A stretch of DNA of 64,000 bases from an uncultured Pirellulales bacterium (GTDB taxonomy: Bacteria > Planctomycetota > Phycisphaerae > Sedimentisphaerales > Anaerobacaceae): contig CAZFOQ010000002.1 of NCBI GenBank assembly GCA_964520535.1, positions 32,990 through 96,989 on the forward strand, given 5' to 3'. Both the position numbers and the translations under genes were made by a program. The notes under the pieces are model-generated. The model did not search any database. It worked only from the letters and a program-made list of their open reading frames with translations, and was not told the DNA's origin. Shown here piece by piece: positions 23,699 to 59,293 of the stretch (position 1 is the stretch's first letter; every line of letters begins with the position of its first letter).

Positions 23699-25360
23699 TT
23701 ATCTGATCAGGCTGGTCAATTCCCGGAGGATATCATTTGCGACTCTGATACTTCTTGCATTGGCTTGGAAGCCGTTTTGTGCTTGAATCATATTTACGAA
23801 CTCGGTTGCAACATCGGCATTGGATTTTTCCAATGACCCGCCGTGTATAGAGCCCGCCCCGCCGGTCATAGCTTGTGTGGCTATTGCTTCTCCTGAGTTA
23901 GCCGAGGGAATGAAGTACCCGTTACCAATATTTTCCAGACCTGTAGTATTCTGGAACAAAGATATCTGTAAGGTAGCAATGTTTTTCTTGATGCCGTTAG
24001 AGAACGCGCCAATGACTATACCTTCGTTATTAGCCGAGACCGTTGAAAGCCTCCCCGCTTCATAACCATCCTGCTCCCTTGCTACTGCTGTAGAATTACC
24101 GGCGAACTGCGTCAATCCATCCAGCCTCCCGGGCGTACCCAGGTTTATATCGATAGTCTGTGGACTGGAAATATCATGGGCAAAGGTAATTACGAATTCA
24201 GCGGAGTCCGGACCACTTAAACCGGCATAAGAACTATCACTGGCGTCAAAGGTAATATCTTCAATACGCCGGTTAGCCATCGTTATCTCACTTATATCTC
24301 CGGTTATCGAGGTCAGGACCATATCCCATGTATTGGGTGTATCCGATCGGACAAACGCACCAGAGAGAACGTGTTTACCTCCCTGAGAGTCATAAGCTGT
24401 GATATTGACACTTTTAACTTCTTCTCCACCAACGGTCGAAATCTCAAAATAAGCCGGCATTGTCAGTGAATTATTTTCATACGAAAGAGCCATATCCGTT
24501 TTGCTGTAACCGCTGGTATCATCAGTTATTCGAATTTGTCCATTAACTAAAGAGGCGGATGAACCATTAAGCACAGTGGTATTGAGATAGCTAATAAAGT
24601 CGCCAAGTGTTGTAGTTCCACCAACAACAGCAAAGGTCAATGGGCCAAAGGGTGTACTATCTTTGTCAAACCCCGTGACAGTGATGTTACCATCAGTCAA
24701 TGATCCATTGCATTGATCTAGATCACTGAATAATGTGGATTCGCTTGCGGTAATCCCGTTATTATAGGTATAAGCTACATTCGAACTAATCACTTGTGCT
24801 CTTGTTACAGAAAATGCTGCATCGGCACTGAGGTTACCGGAAACAACGATTTCTGATGTTTCTTTGGCTGGCATAGCAACATCATAAGGAACATGTATAT
24901 CGCTAACACCCGGAGTCTGAAAGCCGTCAATTTCACCTTCCGAGCCAATACGCTGGACATGAAAACCTGTTGAAGGATCGACCAGGTTCGAGTCCGCATC
25001 AACAGCAAACGAACCGGAACGTGAGTAAATATTCTGCTGGCCATCACTCAAAACGAAATAACCTTCTCCTTCTACCGCCATGTCCAGGGGATTGCCGGTA
25101 TTGATGATATTACCCTGTGTCATGTTGGGAGATATACCCGAGACGCCAACACCGCTGCCCATTTGCTGGGGATTTGTGCCACCGACACCCGAGGTTGGCT
25201 GTGATGCCTTTTTAATCGTTTCGCTCAGAAGCTCTGAAAATGTTATTCTACTGGCCTTAAAAGCAGTAGTATTGACGTTGGCAAGGTTGTTACCGGCTAT
25301 ATCAAGCATTTTTTGGTGGGCCTGCAATCCGGTAACTCCGGCTGATAATGCAAAACTCAT
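23699..25360 (-). CDS. flgE: flagellar hook protein FlgE
   Basis: 553 aa. N-terminus MSFALSAGVTGLQAHQKMLDIAGNNLANVNTTAFK. C-terminus ...SLEKSNADVATEFVNMIQAQNGFQANARSIRVANDILRELTSLIR. Confidence 0.85.
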   Translation of the reverse strand: MSFALSAGVTGLQAHQKMLDIAGNNLANVNTTAFKASRITFSELLSETIKKASQPTSGVGGTNPQQMGSGVGVSGISPNMTQGNIINTGNPLDMAVEGEGYFVLSDGQQNIYSRSGSFAVDADSNLVDPSTGFHVQRIGSEGEIDGFQTPGVSDIHVPYDVAMPAKETSEIVVSGNLSADAAFSVTRAQVISSNVAYTYNNGITASESTLFSDLDQCNGSLTDGNITVTGFDKDSTPFGPLTFAVVGGTTTLGDFISYLNTTVLNGSSASLVNGQIRITDDTSGYSKTDMALSYENNSLTMPAYFEISTVGGEEVKSVNITAYDSQGGKHVLSGAFVRSDTPNTWDMVLTSITGDISEITMANRRIEDITFDASDSSYAGLSGPDSAEFVITFAHDISSPQTIDINLGTPGRLDGLTQFAGNSTAVAREQDGYEAGRLSTVSANNEGIVIGAFSNGIKKNIATLQISLFQNTTGLENIGNGYFIPSANSGEAIATQAMTGGAGSIHGGSLEKSNADVATEFVNMIQAQNGFQANARSIRVANDILRELTSLIR

Positions 25361-25398
25361 TTTTGTTTCTCCTTATATAGAAACTCTTGTTTTTGAAT

Positions 25399-25782
25399 TT
25401 AGTTTTGGACTGATATGACTTCTTTTAAAGCGAGAGCATGGTCTTCTACGACTAAAACGATTTCGCCATCATAATCATTTATGACCTGCTCAACTATTCC
25501 ACTTGTAATGTCTGATGTACCTGTCTCTGTTTCTGCCAAGAATGATACCTCTTTACCTATCAATGAATTGGCATATGTTCGCTCAGCAGCGACAAGAGCC
25601 TGCGCAAAGCTCGAATTCATCGTTTCGAGTTGTGAAAGTTGTGAGAACTGAGCCAACTGGGATGCCATTTCGTTGTTGTCTAATGGTTCCAGCGGATTCT
25701 GGTTTTGTAGTTGCGTAACCAGAAGTTTCATATAATCCATCTGGATATTACTTGCGACGCTTGTTACCGATGATGCTTCCAT
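25399..25782 (-). CDS. flgD: flagellar hook-capping/assembly protein FlgD
   Basis: 127 aa. MDYMKLLVTQLQNQNPLEPLDNNEMASQLAQFSQLSQLE is the FlgD N-terminal signature. Sits immediately upstream of flgE. Confidence 0.7.
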   Translation of the reverse strand: MEASSVTSVASNIQMDYMKLLVTQLQNQNPLEPLDNNEMASQLAQFSQLSQLETMNSSFAQALVAAERTYANSLIGKEVSFLAETETGTSDITSGIVEQVINDYDGEIVLVVEDHALALKEVISVQN

Positions 25783-25842
25783 AATCTCTCAACCTTTTTT
25801 ATCAAAAAAACAGTTTATTCAATGAATATATTAAAAAAGGTT

Positions 25843-25858
25843 AGCAATTGCCGTGCCA
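25843..25858 (-). promoter_or_regulatory. sigma54 (RpoN) -24/-12 promoter for the flgD-flgL operon
   Basis: The minus strand reads TGGCACGGCAATTGCT, an exact match to the TGGCAC-N5-TTGCW consensus. The -12 element is about 60 nt upstream of the flgD ATG. Confidence 0.55.
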
Positions 25859-26157
25859 TATTGGTGTTATCCGCAAATTACTTATACACAACTTATTGTT
25901 ATTAATAATGTTATGGCAACTTCAAAAATACATAAACGAGGAAATAACACTTTTTAGACGACTTATATGTGCGGATAGATTTTCCTTCTCCTCAGAAAAT
26001 TCTGCCGGTTTTTATTTAAGAATCTTAAAGACATTTTCCATTTAATCTCTTGAAATCAGGGATGCGTTTTAGGTTATTGAAATCTAAAAACAACTTCTGG
26101 CTGAAAACGAAAGCAATAAAGTTGACTTGCTCTGAGAGCTTTATTAGACTACGTTTT

Positions 26158-27672
26158 ATGAAGCAAAAATTTGAAAACAATCCCTCTAATGCCAAATGTG
26201 ACGGTTATTGTGGTCTTACTATCAGAGACCATACTAACGATCGCATTGGGGAAAACTGTGGTCTTTTTGGCATTTTTGGCGACTCAGATGCAGTCAGGAA
26301 AACCTATTTCGGCTTACACAGCCTTCAGCATCGCGGCCAAGAGTCAGCCGGTATCGCCTCCAGCAACGGTGAATCACTCCAATGCTACACAGATATGGGT
26401 ACGGTGAGCAGAGTTTTTCGTATCGGAAGAGGTGTTTTTGAAAATTTATCTAATCCGATTGCGATCGGCCACGTCCGATATTCAACAACCGGTACAAGCA
26501 AAGTAATAAACAGTCAACCGCTTTTGGCAGAATTCTCCCGTGGACAGGTGGCGGTAGCACATAACGGCAATCTTATCAACGCACCATTGCTGCGAGACGA
26601 ATATGAGGCTTACGGTAGTATCTTTAAGTCCACAAGTGACACCGAAATAATTATACATTTGCTCGCCAAACCGACTCATGTCAGCAAACCCGACCCACTT
26701 GCACATGTATTAAACCATCTTCAGGGAGCATATAGCTTGCTTTTTCTGTTTGCCGACCGGATCGAAGCCGCTCGTGATCCTTATGGGATTAGGCCTTTGT
26801 GTATTGGCAAAATCCCTGATGGCGCCTATGTGGTCGCTAGTGAGACTTGCGCTTTCGATACAATAAATGCAGAGTTTATTCGAGAGGTCGAACCAGGCGA
26901 AATCGTTAAACTGGATAAAGACGGCCTGCACAGCAGATTTTTTGCTGCACAGGAAGCTATCAAGCCTACTCATTGTATCTTCGAGCATGTCTACTTTGCC
27001 AAACAGAACAGTACAATCTTTGGTGAAAATGTACACCAGTTCAGAAAAAAACTCGGCAGGCAAGTGGCCATTGAGCATCCCGCTGAGGCCGACGTTGTAA
27101 TCCCCGTCCCGGATTCAGGAACATCGGCTGCAATAGGTTATGCAGAGCAAAGTAACATACCTTTCGATATGGGACTGGTCAGAAGCCACTACATCGGCAG
27201 AACATTTATCTCACCGGAGCAGAGACAAAGGGAGCTGGAGGTCAAACTCAAGCTGGCGATTGTCAAGGAAGTTGTCAGCGGCAAACGCATCGTGATTGTC
27301 GATGATTCTATAGTTCGCGGCACCACTACCAGGGGCAAAATCAGGGCATTACGCCAGGCTGGGGCAAAGGAAATTCACATGCGGGTGAGCTGTCCGCCAA
27401 TCAGATTCCCCTGCTTTTACGGCGTCGATTTTCCCACAAAAGAAGAACTGCTGGCAAACAACCGCGATATCAAACAAATCAAGGAATTCCTCGAAGTTGA
27501 CAGCATCGGTTATATTTCGCTGGAAGGAATGCTCAGTTGTGCGGCTCTGCCTGCGGACCACTACTGCACCGCATGCTGGAACGGAAAATATAAAATTCCC
27601 GTAGATGTTACAGTCAACAAATTCTCTCTGGAACGTTACCAGTTGCATATGTTCGACAAACTCGATACTTAG
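26158..27672 (+). CDS. purF: amidophosphoribosyltransferase PurF (class II glutamine amidotransferase + PRTase), with an N-terminal propeptide-like extension
   Basis: Contains CGLFGIFG (Cys nucleophile), LQHRGQESAGIA, the PRTase motifs VIPVPDSG and VIVDDSIVRGTT, and C-terminal Cys residues (HYCTACWNG). The track ORF starts at 26050, but the first plausible ATG is 26158 (MKQKFEN...), still 34 aa before the Cys. Confidence 0.85.
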   Translation: MKQKFENNPSNAKCDGYCGLTIRDHTNDRIGENCGLFGIFGDSDAVRKTYFGLHSLQHRGQESAGIASSNGESLQCYTDMGTVSRVFRIGRGVFENLSNPIAIGHVRYSTTGTSKVINSQPLLAEFSRGQVAVAHNGNLINAPLLRDEYEAYGSIFKSTSDTEIIIHLLAKPTHVSKPDPLAHVLNHLQGAYSLLFLFADRIEAARDPYGIRPLCIGKIPDGAYVVASETCAFDTINAEFIREVEPGEIVKLDKDGLHSRFFAAQEAIKPTHCIFEHVYFAKQNSTIFGENVHQFRKKLGRQVAIEHPAEADVVIPVPDSGTSAAIGYAEQSNIPFDMGLVRSHYIGRTFISPEQRQRELEVKLKLAIVKEVVSGKRIVIVDDSIVRGTTTRGKIRALRQAGAKEIHMRVSCPPIRFPCFYGVDFPTKEELLANNRDIKQIKEFLEVDSIGYISLEGMLSCAALPADHYCTACWNGKYKIPVDVTVNKFSLERYQLHMFDKLDT

Positions 27673-27754
27673 TACTTTTCAGACATTAAAAACATCGTAA
27701 AACAGAAAGCTTAATATAAAAATACGTGAAGAACACCTTTCAGGCTTTGAATAG

Positions 27755-28822
27755 ATGAGCAAGTACCTCAGCTATGACCAATCGGGTGTGAGCATCGATG
27801 CCAACGACCAGATGGTTCAGCAAATCTGGTCCGCTGTAGCGGGGACTTTCGGACCTCGTGTGATAGAATCGAAAGGTGGCTTCGCGGGAATGTTTCGGTT
27901 GGACTATGATGAAAAACTCTTCAAAAGAAATTACAAGAATCCCGTCCTCGTGGCCTGCACAGATGGCGTCGGCAGTAAAGTCCAGTTAGCCACCAAAATA
28001 AAAAAGTACGATACAGTCGGTATCGATTTGGTGGCGATGAGCGTCAACGATATGCTTGTTGCCGGTGCTGAGCCGTTGTTTTTTCTCGATTACATCGCTG
28101 TCCATAAGCTGGAGCCTCAAACAATAGCCGAGCTTGTCAAAGGTGTCGCTGCCGGCTGCCGACAAGCCGACTGTGCATTGATCGGCGGAGAAACTGCCGA
28201 GATGCCGGATACCTATGCCAAGGACGACTTTGATATGGCCGGTTTCGCCGTCGGCGTTCTTGAGCGGGATAAAATCATCGCCGGTGAAACCGTCAGGAAT
28301 GGAGATGTGATCCTGGGTCTTGCCTCGAACGGCCTGCACAGCAACGGATATACGCTGGTTCGCAATATCTGCTTCAAGCAGGCCGGGCTTAAAATGACCG
28401 ATACTCCGGACCAGCTCGACGGCACCACTCTGGGTAATATGCTGCTGGAGCCGACACGAATTTATGTCAGGCCTGTGATAAAATTGCTCTCACAGTACAA
28501 AGTAAAACGTATTGTCCACGCAATGGCTCACATCACCGGCGGCGGTCTTGTCGGGAATATCCCACGAGTGCTGCCGAAAAACTGTGACGCTGTAATAAAA
28601 AAATCGAGCTGGCCCAGGCACAAGATATTTACATTTTTACAAAAAACCGGCCCAGTCACCGAAGAGGAAATGTACAGAGTCTTCAATATGGGGATAGGAT
28701 TTGTTATGATAGTTGCTGAGGACTTTGCAAATTCCATTGTGAAGAAGTTAAAAAGATACGGCGAACAGGTTTATAGAATAGGAAGAATCACAACAGGTAA
28801 CGGCAAAGTCGTGCTCAAATAA
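27755..28822 (+). CDS. purM: phosphoribosylformylglycinamidine cyclo-ligase (AIR synthetase) PurM
   Basis: 355 aa. PurM-family motifs: VACTDGVGSK, DLVAMSVNDMLVAGAEPLFFLDYIA, ITGGGL. Confidence 0.85.
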   Translation: MSKYLSYDQSGVSIDANDQMVQQIWSAVAGTFGPRVIESKGGFAGMFRLDYDEKLFKRNYKNPVLVACTDGVGSKVQLATKIKKYDTVGIDLVAMSVNDMLVAGAEPLFFLDYIAVHKLEPQTIAELVKGVAAGCRQADCALIGGETAEMPDTYAKDDFDMAGFAVGVLERDKIIAGETVRNGDVILGLASNGLHSNGYTLVRNICFKQAGLKMTDTPDQLDGTTLGNMLLEPTRIYVRPVIKLLSQYKVKRIVHAMAHITGGGLVGNIPRVLPKNCDAVIKKSSWPRHKIFTFLQKTGPVTEEEMYRVFNMGIGFVMIVAEDFANSIVKKLKRYGEQVYRIGRITTGNGKVVLK

Positions 28823-28906
28823 CTTATGCCCTGATGTTCGAATCAAGGAGGACGGCACTTATTTCAAGGATTGATAACAAACCTTAAAAAGATTTTCCAT
28901 TCGGAT

Positions 28907-28936
28907 TTGAATTCGCCAATGCAAATATGATACAAT
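28907..28936 (+). promoter_or_regulatory. candidate sigma70 promoter (TTGAAT-18-TACAAT) for the purF-like paralogue
   Basis: TTGAAT at 28907-28912, an 18-nt spacer, and TACAAT at 28931-28936, about 78 nt upstream of the ATG at 29015. RBS AGGAGG lies 7 nt before the ATG. Confidence 0.35.
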
Positions 28937-29014
28937 GTCGATATCCAGGAACTTGGCGGTGTCGCTGAGCATTTTAACAAGGAAGTCACAGGCAAAACAA
29001 ACAGGAGGTAAATC

Positions 29015-30502
29015 ATGAGCGGTATCTTTGGAGTGGTCTCAAAGGGAAATTGTGCGGAAACACTTTTTTACGGCACAGATTATCATTCGCATCTCGGCAC
29101 CGAATATGGGGGTATTGCAGTACTTGAGGAGGATTTTACCCGCCAAATACATAACTTAAACCAAAGCCAGTTCAAATCAAAATTCTATGACGACTATAAA
29201 CATATCAAAGGCAACAAAGGCATCGGTGTTATCAGCGACTATGACGAACAGCCGATTTATCTTAACTCCAGACATGGGCCATTCTGTATAGTGACCAGCG
29301 GATTTGTTGAAAACGCCGAAGAACTGGCCGGACAATTGCTGAGCCAGGGAATATCTTTTAGCGAAGTCAGCGGCAGAACGGTTAATACTCCCGAACTGAT
29401 TGCGAAAATAATCAATCAGGGAAATAACTTGACTAACGGCATCGAGAAGGTATTTGAGGCCATTGAGGGTTCATGCTCGTTGCTCTTACTGAACAAAGAT
29501 GGAATATATGCAGCCAGGGACAGACATGGATATACACCGCTTATTATTGGCAGGCGTTCGGACGCATGGGCGGTGACTGCCGAGACAAGTGCCTTTCCTA
29601 ATAACGCATTCGAGATCGTAAAGCATATTGAACCCGGGGAGATAGTACTGCTCAATGAGGCGGGGATGGTCCAGAGCAGACCGGGTGATGATAGTCAAAA
29701 TCAGATTTGCGCGTTTCTCTGGATTTATACCGGCTTTCCGGCCTCAAACTACGAAGGAATTAATGTTGAGATCGTCAGGGAAAAGTGCGGCCGGCATTTG
29801 GCAAAACACGATAAGGACATCGAAGTTGATTTGGTCTCAGGTGTCCCGGACTCCGGCTTAGCCCATGGATTAGGATATGCTATGGAATCAGGCAAGCCGT
29901 TCAGACGCCCCCTGGTCAAATACACGCAGGGTTACGGCAGAAGCTATACGCCTCCCTCACAAGATAGACGAGACCTGATTGCCAAGATGAAGCTTATCCC
30001 CATCAAGGAAGTGATCGAGGGCAACAGCATTGTCATCTGTGAGGACTCGATAGTTAGAGGAACTCAGCTTAAAAACTTCACAATCAAAAAACTGTGGGAC
30101 TGTGGGGCTAAGAAGATACATATCAGACCTGCCTGCCCACCTTTAATGTTTCCTTGTAGATTCAATCTTTCTACGCGATCGATTAAGGAGCTTGCGGCTC
30201 GCAAAGCTATTCGCAGCCTCGAGAAGAAAGATACTGAAAACGTCTCAGAATATATCGACCACAAATCTGAAAAGTACAAAAAAATGGTCGAATGGATCGC
30301 CAAAGACATCGATGTCACGACATTAAGATATCAAACCGTGGACGATATGGTTGAAGCGATCGGGCTGCCCAAAGAAAAACTTTGCCTCTACTGCTGGACC
30401 GGCAAATGCCCAAAAACAGTTTGCCCAAAATCCAAAACAAAGATCGTTGATGTCAAGAAACAAGCCGCAAAAAAACAGGTCCGGGTAAAAGTCGAACTCT
30501 AA
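29015..30502 (+). CDS. PurF-like paralogue: degenerate Ntn-amidotransferase-like N-domain (Cys1 replaced by Ser) with an intact type I PRTase domain and a Cys-rich, Lys-rich C-terminal tail
   Basis: The N-terminus MSGIFGVV replaces the MCGIxG of PurF, and the glutaminase RGQE motif is not conserved (HSHLGTEYGGIAV). The PRTase motifs are retained (VSGVPDSG, VICEDSIVRGTQ). The C-terminus has CLYCWTGKC and CPKTVC, then KKQAAKKQVRVKVEL. Confidence 0.7.
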   Translation: MSGIFGVVSKGNCAETLFYGTDYHSHLGTEYGGIAVLEEDFTRQIHNLNQSQFKSKFYDDYKHIKGNKGIGVISDYDEQPIYLNSRHGPFCIVTSGFVENAEELAGQLLSQGISFSEVSGRTVNTPELIAKIINQGNNLTNGIEKVFEAIEGSCSLLLLNKDGIYAARDRHGYTPLIIGRRSDAWAVTAETSAFPNNAFEIVKHIEPGEIVLLNEAGMVQSRPGDDSQNQICAFLWIYTGFPASNYEGINVEIVREKCGRHLAKHDKDIEVDLVSGVPDSGLAHGLGYAMESGKPFRRPLVKYTQGYGRSYTPPSQDRRDLIAKMKLIPIKEVIEGNSIVICEDSIVRGTQLKNFTIKKLWDCGAKKIHIRPACPPLMFPCRFNLSTRSIKELAARKAIRSLEKKDTENVSEYIDHKSEKYKKMVEWIAKDIDVTTLRYQTVDDMVEAIGLPKEKLCLYCWTGKCPKTVCPKSKTKIVDVKKQAAKKQVRVKVEL

Positions 30503-30519
30503 AACCAGGCCATCCATTT

Positions 30520-31566
30520 TTGTGCCGCTTTCAAATTATAAACGATATGCAGAAAACAAGGTATTCCATGTTCATTGCTGCAGCTCTGGTGTATGCCGGT
30601 TTTGCGGTTTATTTATATCAGCCCTATTTTCAAAACTTCGAAAGGTTCCAGCATCTTCTGGTTTTCAACCTGTTCCTTGCTTCATTGGGTTGTTATGTGC
30701 TCAGCCGACGTTGGATTTCAGGCTTTATCGAGTCGCTTTTGGCCGGTGCCCTTTATGGTTTCGGGCCTTTCACACTTTCTCTGGCTAAATATCACCCAAC
30801 AGTCGGCTTATTGGCAGCATCCGTACCCTGGCTGTTCTGCCCTGTTGCATTTGGTCTCAAAGACAGGTGGCGGTGGCTGAGTATGTTGTTAGCAACGCTG
30901 CCGTTCCTGGCCATCGTATTGTTCTTCCAGATAACCATCCACCTTCGTTTATTCGCAATTTCAACACAGGCCCGGCTGGAAATCACAGAATTATACAGCC
31001 TGTTGGCTCCGTTGGTTGCAGCTAAGCGGGGTACTACTTTGATAGGTTTTTACCACGTGCCCATGGCGGCACTAATTATGGGCTTCGCTATGTTGATTGC
31101 CGCCAGGCGGTTCGGTGTCATGGCAATTTTAGCTATCGGCATAATTCTGACTTTTTGTGATCCGATTAATTCCATTCTTGAGGTCAGCCCGATTATCTGG
31201 CTAACCATCAGCGTGTTATGCTGTTCGATCATTATTGGTGCCGGTTTGCAGGGACTTGTCTCAGCCGGTCACGCAGACCGCAAGTGGATACTCGCAACAG
31301 CAATCGTTATGGGCATTCTGGCTATCGTGACATTACTGTTGGCGACAAAATATTTTCAGACATTTTTAGGACTTGGCTCGGGATATGCCAGGCTTTTTAC
31401 CGAAGAGGCCAAAATGTATATACTCGGCACAGTTGCAGTTGCGATAATCTTTTTTCTCTCATGTGCAAAATTGCGATCGCACCGGCTGCGCGAGGCTATT
31501 CTTTTCGCCGCGATAGCATTGGATGTATTTCTCGGAGCGAGATACATCATCGATAAGATTTTCTAA
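30520..31566 (+). CDS. polytopic integral membrane protein of unknown function
   Basis: 348 aa with about 9 hydrophobic segments. No recognised motif. The start may lie at an internal Met (MQKTRYSMFIAAAL). Confidence 0.5.
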   Translation: MCRFQIINDMQKTRYSMFIAAALVYAGFAVYLYQPYFQNFERFQHLLVFNLFLASLGCYVLSRRWISGFIESLLAGALYGFGPFTLSLAKYHPTVGLLAASVPWLFCPVAFGLKDRWRWLSMLLATLPFLAIVLFFQITIHLRLFAISTQARLEITELYSLLAPLVAAKRGTTLIGFYHVPMAALIMGFAMLIAARRFGVMAILAIGIILTFCDPINSILEVSPIIWLTISVLCCSIIIGAGLQGLVSAGHADRKWILATAIVMGILAIVTLLLATKYFQTFLGLGSGYARLFTEEAKMYILGTVAVAIIFFLSCAKLRSHRLREAILFAAIALDVFLGARYIIDKIF

Positions 31567-57760: not shown

Positions 57761-59293
57761 TCATTGTTCGTATCCTAATTCTCTGAGCACCTGCTCAGTT
57801 GACACTCCTAAATCTTTTTTCATCTGTGCTTCTTTGAGCTTTTCGGCCATGTTCTCCGGCAGCGGGCTGGGAAATATAATATCGACCTCTCTGTCCGTGG
57901 TGCCGGTCTTATATATGTCGGCGGTATCGAGCATTCTTAAAACCATCCGGCAAATTTGTTTTACCCCCTCGCTGTAAGTAAATCTCTTACGTTCGTTCTT
58001 TGAGAGCATCCCCATCAAGGTCAGTCTCAAGGCCACCGCACTTGTCAAATTGCCGAGCTTGTTCTTCAAAACCCCCGCCACCAATGGTGTCACCGAGCTG
58101 ACCTTGTCCATCGCCTCTCTGATTTCTGCTATGTGCAAAGCTTCGCTGGGAGTCGCTGCGTCTCCGCCGAACTCCTCGATAGAAGCCTCCGGATTATCGG
58201 TGTACCACATTCGACCGGGCGAAACAGGTTTGTCCTCAAAGCCCTCGATTCCTTTGCCCAGATACATTTTAAACGACTGGAACGTGATTCTGCTGGCCCT
58301 GTCGCTTAATCGTGTATTGAGTTCGTCCTGCAACGGGATTAACGGCTCAACGTTACTGTGACCCTCATAGAAATAGGGCTGTGCGATGTTCTGAATATGC
58401 ACGACCGGCAGAAATTCCCATGGCAAGATGCCCTCGGCCACAAGCTCCTTGTCTTCATATCTTTGCCAGGCATTTGCCGAAGTGATTTCGGTTACGGCGA
58501 CAATCTGCCGACTGTCACCGCTGCGCCGGCCGCCGGATAAAATCCGTGAAAGAAACGAGCTTTTTCTGGCGAGGGCATTTTTCTTCTGATAGAAATGCTG
58601 CACATAATACCGGATCTCTTTGTAATCGTTTTCATCCAGAACCGGCAGTGCTCTTGGCGCTTCAATCAGTTCCAGTCCGATTGTTTGTACCAGTCGTTGT
58701 GCTTCTTCGAGAGATCCCGTTGTCCGGGAATCCTGTGAGTGGTTTTGGAAGGAGGAGGAAGTGACTCGTTCGATGATCTCATCGCCAGGCCTGACGAAGC
58801 AATCGACGAAACCGTAAACACTTCCGAGCACTGCCATATCCTGGAGAAATCCGATAGCACCATTAGCCGAAAAGAGTGCCTTTATAATCGACTCAATTTC
58901 TGCACGTTTCAGGTCGTCCGGTGATTTGGAAGTAAAACTAATGGATTTGCCGAACAAAAAATCCACGGCGGCATTAATCCGCCATGCAATATCATTTTCG
59001 ATCACAACTTCTTTTCTCTGTATATCTCTCAATACCCTTGTACCGGGTAAACCAGAACGGCCGGAGTGGACGTAACCGGTTATTCTTGCCGGCAGGCCAA
59101 ATTCCTGTGCCTGTATGGATCTCTTTGATGATTCTGCCAGCCTGCTGTCAGAAATTTCGATCTTTGGATTTGCATAATAATTCCAAAGCAGCTCAAAGTG
59201 AGCTTGAATATCGACCCAGCGTGTATCGATGAGCCAGTCAATGTAATCTGCCTCAAGCCCGGTGTCCTGGAATATGTCAGTTTCAAATGCCAT
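57761..59293 (-). CDS. phage portal-like protein (510 aa)
   Basis: First gene of the module. Its size and position upstream of the scaffold and capsid genes fit a portal. It has no Walker A, so it is not a terminase. Confidence 0.4.
   Translation of the reverse strand: MAFETDIFQDTGLEADYIDWLIDTRWVDIQAHFELLWNYYANPKIEISDSRLAESSKRSIQAQEFGLPARITGYVHSGRSGLPGTRVLRDIQRKEVVIENDIAWRINAAVDFLFGKSISFTSKSPDDLKRAEIESIIKALFSANGAIGFLQDMAVLGSVYGFVDCFVRPGDEIIERVTSSSFQNHSQDSRTTGSLEEAQRLVQTIGLELIEAPRALPVLDENDYKEIRYYVQHFYQKKNALARKSSFLSRILSGGRRSGDSRQIVAVTEITSANAWQRYEDKELVAEGILPWEFLPVVHIQNIAQPYFYEGHSNVEPLIPLQDELNTRLSDRASRITFQSFKMYLGKGIEGFEDKPVSPGRMWYTDNPEASIEEFGGDAATPSEALHIAEIREAMDKVSSVTPLVAGVLKNKLGNLTSAVALRLTLMGMLSKNERKRFTYSEGVKQICRMVLRMLDTADIYKTGTTDREVDIIFPSPLPENMAEKLKEAQMKKDLGVSTEQVLRELGYEQ

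Follow-up and report, generated by a model that had tools for sequence, protein, structure and literature searches.

A DYHSH-family PurF homologue without the N-terminal cysteine, encoded beside purF and purM in a Sedimentisphaerales genome, as a candidate ammonia-dependent amidotransferase

PurF carries out the committed and tightly regulated step of purine synthesis, which also feeds thiamine synthesis, and the textbook enzyme needs an N-terminal cysteine (Cys1). What, then, could be the role of a PurF homologue devoid of this cysteine and encoded next to a complete PurF? The question is raised by a stretch of 64,000 nucleotides from an uncultured Planctomycetota bacterium of the order Sedimentisphaerales (contig CAZFOQ010000002.1, hereafter the window). 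Its positions 29015–30502 (+ strand) hold an intact open reading frame (ORF) of 495 amino acids that begins MSGIFG. We found this gene to be an unremarkable member of a family that occurs widely, called here the DYHSH family, whose proteins are labelled plain amidophosphoribosyltransferase in databases. From the comparisons described below, we consider it somewhat probable that the product is a glutaminase-dead, ammonia-dependent 5-phosphoribosyl 1-pyrophosphate (PRPP) amidotransferase coexisting here with the canonical glutamine-dependent PurF.

An initial annotation, made from the letters of this stretch, had described the gene as a PurF paralogue lacking both Cys1 and the RGQE motif of the glutaminase site. 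Both points were borne out by alignment. The Ser of codon 2 (AGC, 29018–29020) aligns with Cys1 of the window PurF and of Bacillus subtilis PurF, and HRGQE has become HLGTE, Arg26 being replaced by Leu27 in the alignment to the B. subtilis structure 1ao0 and to the window PurF. The latter change lies in the family signature D22-Y-H-S-H-L-G-T-E30 (29078–29104), which stands in place of the glutamine-site motif L-Q-H-R-G-Q-E. In addition, the Arg73/Tyr74 segment is deleted (GVISD), Asp127 is replaced by Thr and Asn101-Gly102 by Ser-Gly, so that the Gly alone survives among the glutamine-site residues. The neighbouring canonical PurF carries CGLFG, HRGQE, GHVRY, HNGN and SDTE. It shares 29% identity with the Cys-less protein and scores 490.8 bits with the purF equivalog model TIGR01134 (cutoff 350 bits), against 205.2 bits for the Cys-less protein. 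Three traits that mark a glutamine PRPP amidotransferase of EC 2.4.2.14, the N-terminal Cys nucleophile, the glutamine-site residues and a TIGR01134 score above the cutoff, are thus absent from the latter.

The former glutamine pocket is instead occupied by another set of residues. Where Arg26 and Arg73 made it basic, it now holds the conserved D22, Y23, H24, H26, D75 and D77. Conservation in the clade reaches at least 90% for D22, Y23 and H26 and at least 70% for H24, S25, S74 and D77, and residues 22–29 are invariant in alignment A1.

Could the Ser at the Cys1 position replace the Cys as nucleophile, leaving the protein a glutamine amidotransferase? Ser and Thr do serve as nucleophiles in other N-terminal nucleophile (Ntn) hydrolases, and the Ser is invariant in the subclade formed by Sedimentisphaerales and Omnitrophota. 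However, over the 66 motif-bearing representative clusters of the family this position is Gly in 35, Ser in 21, Thr in 5, Ala in 1 and Cys in none. Because it varies in this way, the Ser is not a conserved nucleophile, and the Gly and Ala clusters depart from the Ser/Thr-type Ntn hydrolases, which keep a position 1 nucleophile family-wide. As judged by this sampling of sequences, Ser2 is one among several small residues, nearly all of which permit removal of the initiator Met, and not a meaningful substitute for Cys1. Arg26, Arg73/Tyr74, Asn101 and Asp127, moreover, are gone, and Escherichia coli PurF carrying a Cys1-to-Ser change had no detectable glutamine-dependent activity, as summarised in a later paper (Mei and Zalkin 1989, cited in PMC3261824). 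A catalytic role of the Ser is therefore very improbable.

The phosphoribosyltransferase (PRTase) half was expected from the first inspection to keep its PRPP-binding motifs, and it does. The pyrophosphate-binding loop VSGVPDSG (residues 274–281, 29834–29857) is common to the DYHSH family and canonical PurF. In the PRPP (ribose-5-phosphate) binding loop CEDSIVRGTQ (residues 342–351, 30038–30067), the change of the last Thr to Gln is a family signature: D/E-D-S-x-x-R-G-T is preserved in at least 56 of 67 family sequences and the Gln occurs in 60 of the 67. The flexible loop, K302-Y-T...R309-S...Q316..R319...K326 (29918–29992), shows K302, Y303, T304, R309, S310, P313, Q316, R319 and K326 as invariant positions in A1. 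In an AlphaFold2 model, the predicted local distance difference test (pLDDT) is low at residues 304–324, matching the expectation for a mobile loop.

Four Cys residues spanning 29708–30394 are the predicted [4Fe-4S] ligands: C232 (29708–29710), C381 (30155–30157), C457 (30383–30385) and C460 (30392–30394). They align with B. subtilis C236, C382, C437 and C440, are conserved in 61–66 of the 67 family sequences and are invariant in A1. The Cys-less protein thus shows by alignment the four ligands of a Bacillus-type PurF and probably carries such a cluster. This leaves little of the Cys-rich tail that had been thought an addition to the protein, since C457 and C460 (CLYCWTG) occupy the ligand positions C437/C440 and C232 and C381 provide the other two. 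Beyond this normal Fe-S site, the extras are limited to C466, C471 and a Lys-rich C-terminal tail (residues 469–495, 30419–30499). The tail was correctly noted as an addition, but it is variable or absent in relatives, and with pLDDT values of 31–38, well under 50, it is probably disordered. Ahead of the last Cys pair, the protein carries about 25 residues (30203–30277) that face a gap in canonical sequences; this insertion is predicted to be helical, with modelled helices at 394–403, 411–414 and 419–432.

The top match among solved structures was B. subtilis PurF 1ao0 (E = 4e-56 over residues 3–396 and 424–469). The model, of mean pLDDT 78.7, was superposed on 1ao0 by Foldseek with template modelling scores of 0.77/0.83 over both domains. 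Alignment and model agree on the two-domain fold, Ntn plus type I PRTase, with its pyrophosphate, PRPP and flexible loops.

Is the gene genuine? The codons AGC and TGC are one base apart, and nothing else speaks for a sequencing error at codon 2 or for a decaying purF pseudogene. We recovered 80 genomic loci, with relatives of 91% down to 65% identity and many Omnitrophota among them. MSG opens every one of the 79 whose 5′ end is intact, as well as 116 of 116 motif-bearing database relatives, and the Ser is written with the synonymous codons AGC and AGT. The sequencing error against which the initial annotation had cautioned is hence absent. Hundreds of close relatives occur in metagenome-assembled genomes of Sedimentisphaerales and other Planctomycetota. 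The ratio of nonsynonymous to synonymous substitution (dN/dS) against near relatives is about 0.03–0.06 and low in both domains, a rough value as synonymous sites are near saturation. The frame is intact and is preceded by a strong Shine-Dalgarno sequence, GGAGG (29004–29008), kept in 18 relatives. Error and decay, to which we leave practically no weight, are refuted by these comparative data. An in-frame TAA (29009–29011), two codons 5′ of the MSGIFG start, makes an upstream Cys or a propeptide impossible for this protein. Mean pairwise identities of the N- and C-terminal domains are 0.364 and 0.407 in the clade and 0.36 and 0.417 in canonical PurF, indicating that the dead glutaminase domain is constrained like a live one. 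By all these measures, 29015–30502 is a real and functional gene under strong purifying selection.

An exhaustive search of representative proteins gave the features of the family: M-[G/S/T/A]-G-[ILF]-[FC]-G at the N-terminus, G-T-D-Y-H-S-H-L-G-T, VRGTQ and the helical insertion already described. We defined the clade by four of its traits, an M-[G/S/T/A]-G-x-x-G N-terminus, G-T-D-Y-H-S-H-L-G, VRGTQ and the Fe-S cysteines; the window protein has all four. In a neighbour-joining tree, built without support values, the DYHSH clade formed a single group apart from the Cys1-type PurFs. Other Cys-less PurF-like clades, found in Patescibacteria (P0217, P0239, P0238, P0181 and related sequences, with an N-terminus beginning MAG and a FYQQHLGEE motif), branch elsewhere in it, which suggests from sequence that PurF homologues have lost the nucleophile more than once. 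The DYHSH family is mainly bacterial. Prevotella and other Bacteroidales carry it in dispersed contexts, and it was also found on some archaeal contigs. On two of these (L089, 8001–9386, and L094, 4882–6297), the member lies between the genes for the PolD large subunit and TctA, with no pur genes nearby.

Genomic context was read from the 6–8 kb flanks of the family loci. The order purF-purM-X, X being the family member, was found in the window and in 20 further Sedimentisphaerales loci, and purL-purF-X-purM-purD in two Omnitrophota (L074 and L075); in these loci a canonical purF is nearby. In others X is the only purF-like gene within the flanks, as in a third Omnitrophota locus, L066 (purL-X-purM-purD-purE), in gut Oscillospirales (relatives named Dysosmobacter, Lawsonibacter and Ruminococcaceae; purE-purC-X-purM-purN-purO-purH-purD-purL), in Muribaculaceae (purL-X) and in locus L090 (X-purN-purD). 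When the neighbourhoods of the 80 loci were clustered, no recurrent partner gene across lineages was found beyond pur genes. The clusters obtained were the pur genes, a lineage-specific membrane ORF, DUF503 and, in some Omnitrophota, carB with a DUF1846-like ORF.

Three side observations concern these contexts. At about ten Omnitrophota loci (L035, L045, L048, L051, L054, L055, L059, L070, L078 and L079) the family gene is preceded by carB, encoding the large subunit of carbamoyl-phosphate synthase, and in an overlapping set also by a 514-aa DUF1846-like ORF, in place of pur genes. Between the window and L074/L075, the Cys-less proteins are 69–70% identical, compared with 52% for canonical PurF and 40–41% for PurM, which suggests inter-phylum horizontal transfer of the Cys-less gene or its unusually slow evolution. 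Finally, the Oscillospirales operon at L081 (11074–12895) encodes a PurO-type inosine monophosphate cyclohydrolase (PF07826) and a purH with the AICARFT domain only, a pairing usually described as archaeal.

The loci with two purF-like genes invite the idea that the Cys-less protein is a non-catalytic pseudoenzyme, forming a hetero-oligomer with canonical PurF or sensing nucleotides and so regulating the first purine step, as HisZ does with HisG. PurF is an allosteric oligomer, and the gene adjoins a complete canonical purF in the window, in the 20 other Sedimentisphaerales loci and in the two Omnitrophota. Against this, conservation extends to the PRTase catalytic loop, the pyrophosphate and PRPP loops and the Fe-S ligands alike, and in several pur operons a family member fills the purF slot by itself, no canonical purF being present within 6–8 kb. 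We regard such a role as improbable. Of the functions put forward by the initial annotation, an ammonia-dependent PRTase is the one favoured by the comparative evidence; a regulatory or wholly new role appears less likely, as family members are the sole purF-like gene in otherwise complete pur operons.

How would an ammonia-dependent enzyme of this kind work? The PRTase half would still bind PRPP, and the Cys-less protein would most likely form 5-phosphoribosylamine (PRA) from PRPP and free ammonia or ammonium. PRA synthesis is the simplest reading because the PRTase site is conserved, the purF slot of pur operons is occupied and selection is strong. Free ammonia is the likeliest nitrogen source because the nucleophile and the glutamine-binding residues are gone and E. 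coli Cys1 mutants keep the NH3 reaction only. The old glutamine domain would be retained for its structural role in the active site and channel, and might also let ammonium in or bind it. The shift of the pocket from Arg to Asp and His is compatible with the latter, as it would suit a cation such as NH4+. The Sedimentisphaerales genome would then encode two routes to the first purine intermediate, one dependent on glutamine and the other on ammonia, presumably with a division of labour between the two proteins.

Several points weigh against ammonia dependence. With a full canonical PurF adjacent in the window, the Cys-less gene is not required there for completing the pathway. Many family members in Omnitrophota and Archaea sit outside pur clusters, and in the genomes of Oscillospirales and Omnitrophota a canonical purF may lie beyond the 6–8 kb flanks. 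Our literature search yielded no biochemical study of any DYHSH-family member. Finally, an enzyme using NH3 only has no obvious need for an invariant D-Y-H-S-H, which hints at another ligand or another chemistry.

This last point leads to a different possibility, in which the N-terminal domain, through its remodelling, would have become a new active site feeding PRA synthesis, either from another nitrogen donor or by a non-Ntn hydrolysis of glutamine through Asp, Tyr, His or Ser. The conserved residues lie exactly at the former glutamine pocket (D22, Y23, H26, H24, S25, S74 and D77, as graded above), the N-terminal domain is as constrained as that of canonical PurF, and the pur-operon context suits a PRA-forming enzyme. 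Nevertheless, we know of no precedent for an Ntn amidotransferase fold working without its N-terminal nucleophile, and the operons inspected contain no conserved accessory gene that would supply a donor. The conserved residues may instead be kept for a structural link with the PRTase site, or for the binding of ammonium. We therefore take a new active site to be rather unlikely, if less so than a pseudoenzyme.

Returning to ammonia as the nitrogen source, a bolder and tentative proposal can be extended to the whole family. The first step of purine synthesis may fall mainly to this family, and in many anaerobes to it alone, with no part for glutamine hydrolysis. The Asp/His-rich pocket (D22-Y-H-S-H26, D75 and D77), next to the small and free residue at the N-terminus, would serve as a dedicated site for capture and deprotonation of ammonium, or as a site for an unknown nitrogen donor, feeding the PurF channel. 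We hold this to be possible but doubtful. If true, this would amount to a novel form of catalysis on the Ntn amidotransferase scaffold, and among the anaerobes concerned would be Oscillospirales and Bacteroidales that are dominant in the gut, and Planctomycetota and Omnitrophota of sediments.

Within the window, the same-strand cluster runs in the order canonical purF, purM, Cys-less gene and membrane ORF, and lies between flgD, on the opposite strand, and a DUF503 gene. The canonical purF occupies 26159–27672 (+ strand; longest ORF 26050–27672), its Cys1 codon (26257–26259) lying behind a propeptide. Counted along the longest ORF, Cys1 is residue 70, and from the ATG at 26159 it is the 34th residue, which implies either a propeptide about three times as long as that of B. 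subtilis (11 residues) or an unrecognised start. purM, encoding aminoimidazole ribonucleotide synthetase (Pfam AIRS and AIRS_C), follows at 27755–28822 (+). Directly 3′ of the Cys-less gene lies an ORF for a polytopic membrane protein of 348 aa (30520–31566, +), syntenic in 17 Sedimentisphaerales loci, for which a Pfam search up to E = 5 gave zero matches. It is probably co-transcribed with the Cys-less gene.

The initial annotation had also given the gene a promoter of its own, and hence an expression separate from purF-purM. A promoter-like TTGAAT-18-TACAAT with a TG extension is indeed present (28907–28936, + strand) within the 192-nt spacer between purM and the gene. Yet such matches are fewer in this region than in shuffled sequences (4 compared with 9.6 ± 3.4), and the element is kept in the four closest relatives only (L001–L004). 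As relatives have 18 to 222 nt between purM and X and the + strand of 25300–31000, which covers the cluster, showed no terminator-like site, separate expression gains no support as a general property. The conservative reading is that the Cys-less gene is co-transcribed with purF-purM and that members of its nearest subclade may have an internal promoter. An Rfam scan of 25300–31000 for a riboswitch, including the purM-X spacer and the region upstream of purF, found none. Its sole match, an S15 leader, was sub-threshold and within a coding region, and was taken as chance.

Two further features of the window lie outside the cluster. A minus-strand block (967–25782) that abuts it encodes family-2 and family-1 glycosyltransferases and TPR and methyltransferase domains, adjoining flgK, flgE and flgD, and may represent an island for the glycosylation of flagellin or of the flagellum. 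Towards the window's 3′ end, a gene for an SPP1-type phage portal protein (57761–59293, − strand; PF05133, E = 4.9e-13) points to a prophage or a prophage remnant.

The interest of the locus rests with the family and not with the window gene itself. In many anaerobes the family apparently runs the first purine step without the defining Cys. In those that abound in gut and sediment, the PurF encoded in the operon may belong to this family. If true, the annotation ‘amidophosphoribosyltransferase’ masks a change of nitrogen donor, with consequences for metabolic models (cost in ATP and glutamine, dependence on ammonia), for the predicted sensitivity to glutamine analogues and for our view of how dead amidotransferase domains are reused. 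The window, with both PurF forms side by side in one cluster, offers a convenient test case.

How does the Cys-less protein compare with known systems? The closest characterised enzyme is B. subtilis PurF (1ao0, 1gph), of the [4Fe-4S] class. The two share the two-domain fold with its pyrophosphate, PRPP and flexible loops, the four Cys ligands and a pur-cluster context adjoining purM. The Cys-less protein differs by the absence of Cys1, Arg26, Arg73/Tyr74, Asn101, Asp127 and a propeptide, and by the presence of D-Y-H-S-H-L-G-T, of VRGTQ instead of VRGTT, of the insertion of about 25 aa and of the Lys-rich tail.

The literature was searched for bacterial PurF proteins that lack the Cys and have been characterised, for PurF paralogues, for ammonia dependence in PurF and for genetic work on purF in Bacteroides, and only a 2011 note on archaeal PurF′ was returned; a paper on the Fibro-purF riboswitch is silent on Cys-less enzymes. 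The archaeal PurF′ paralogues lack the N-terminal Cys, with Ala or Val in Crenarchaeota and Ser in Mlab_0150, and their genes neighbour purF and further pur genes; their dependence on ammonia was proposed as a hypothesis (Brown et al. 2011, Biol Direct 6:63, PMC3261824). The loci with purF-purM-X (the window and 20 Sedimentisphaerales) and purF-X-purM (two Omnitrophota) likewise place a PurF homologue without an N-terminal Cys near pur genes. The DYHSH family is mainly bacterial, with some archaeal contigs, and its likeness to the crenarchaeal proteins is drawn here on the missing Cys and the gene neighbourhood.

By analogy, the E. coli Cys1 mutants may serve as a functional model. Replacement of Cys1 by Ser, Ala or Phe abolished the glutamine-dependent activity while NH3-dependent PRA synthesis was kept, in the summary given by the 2011 note (Mei and Zalkin 1989, cited in PMC3261824). 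Those mutants are laboratory-made and their glutamine pocket is otherwise intact; that of the Cys-less protein is wholly rebuilt and conserved.

The presence of both forms in one cluster, finally, recalls pairs of isozymes that give the same product from differing nitrogen donors, such as AsnA and AsnB or the NH3- and glutamine-dependent forms of NadE. The analogy would be that of one organism with two routes differing in nitrogen donor. In those pairs the ammonia-dependent form has an unrelated fold or no glutaminase domain, whereas here the dead domain is kept under strong selection.

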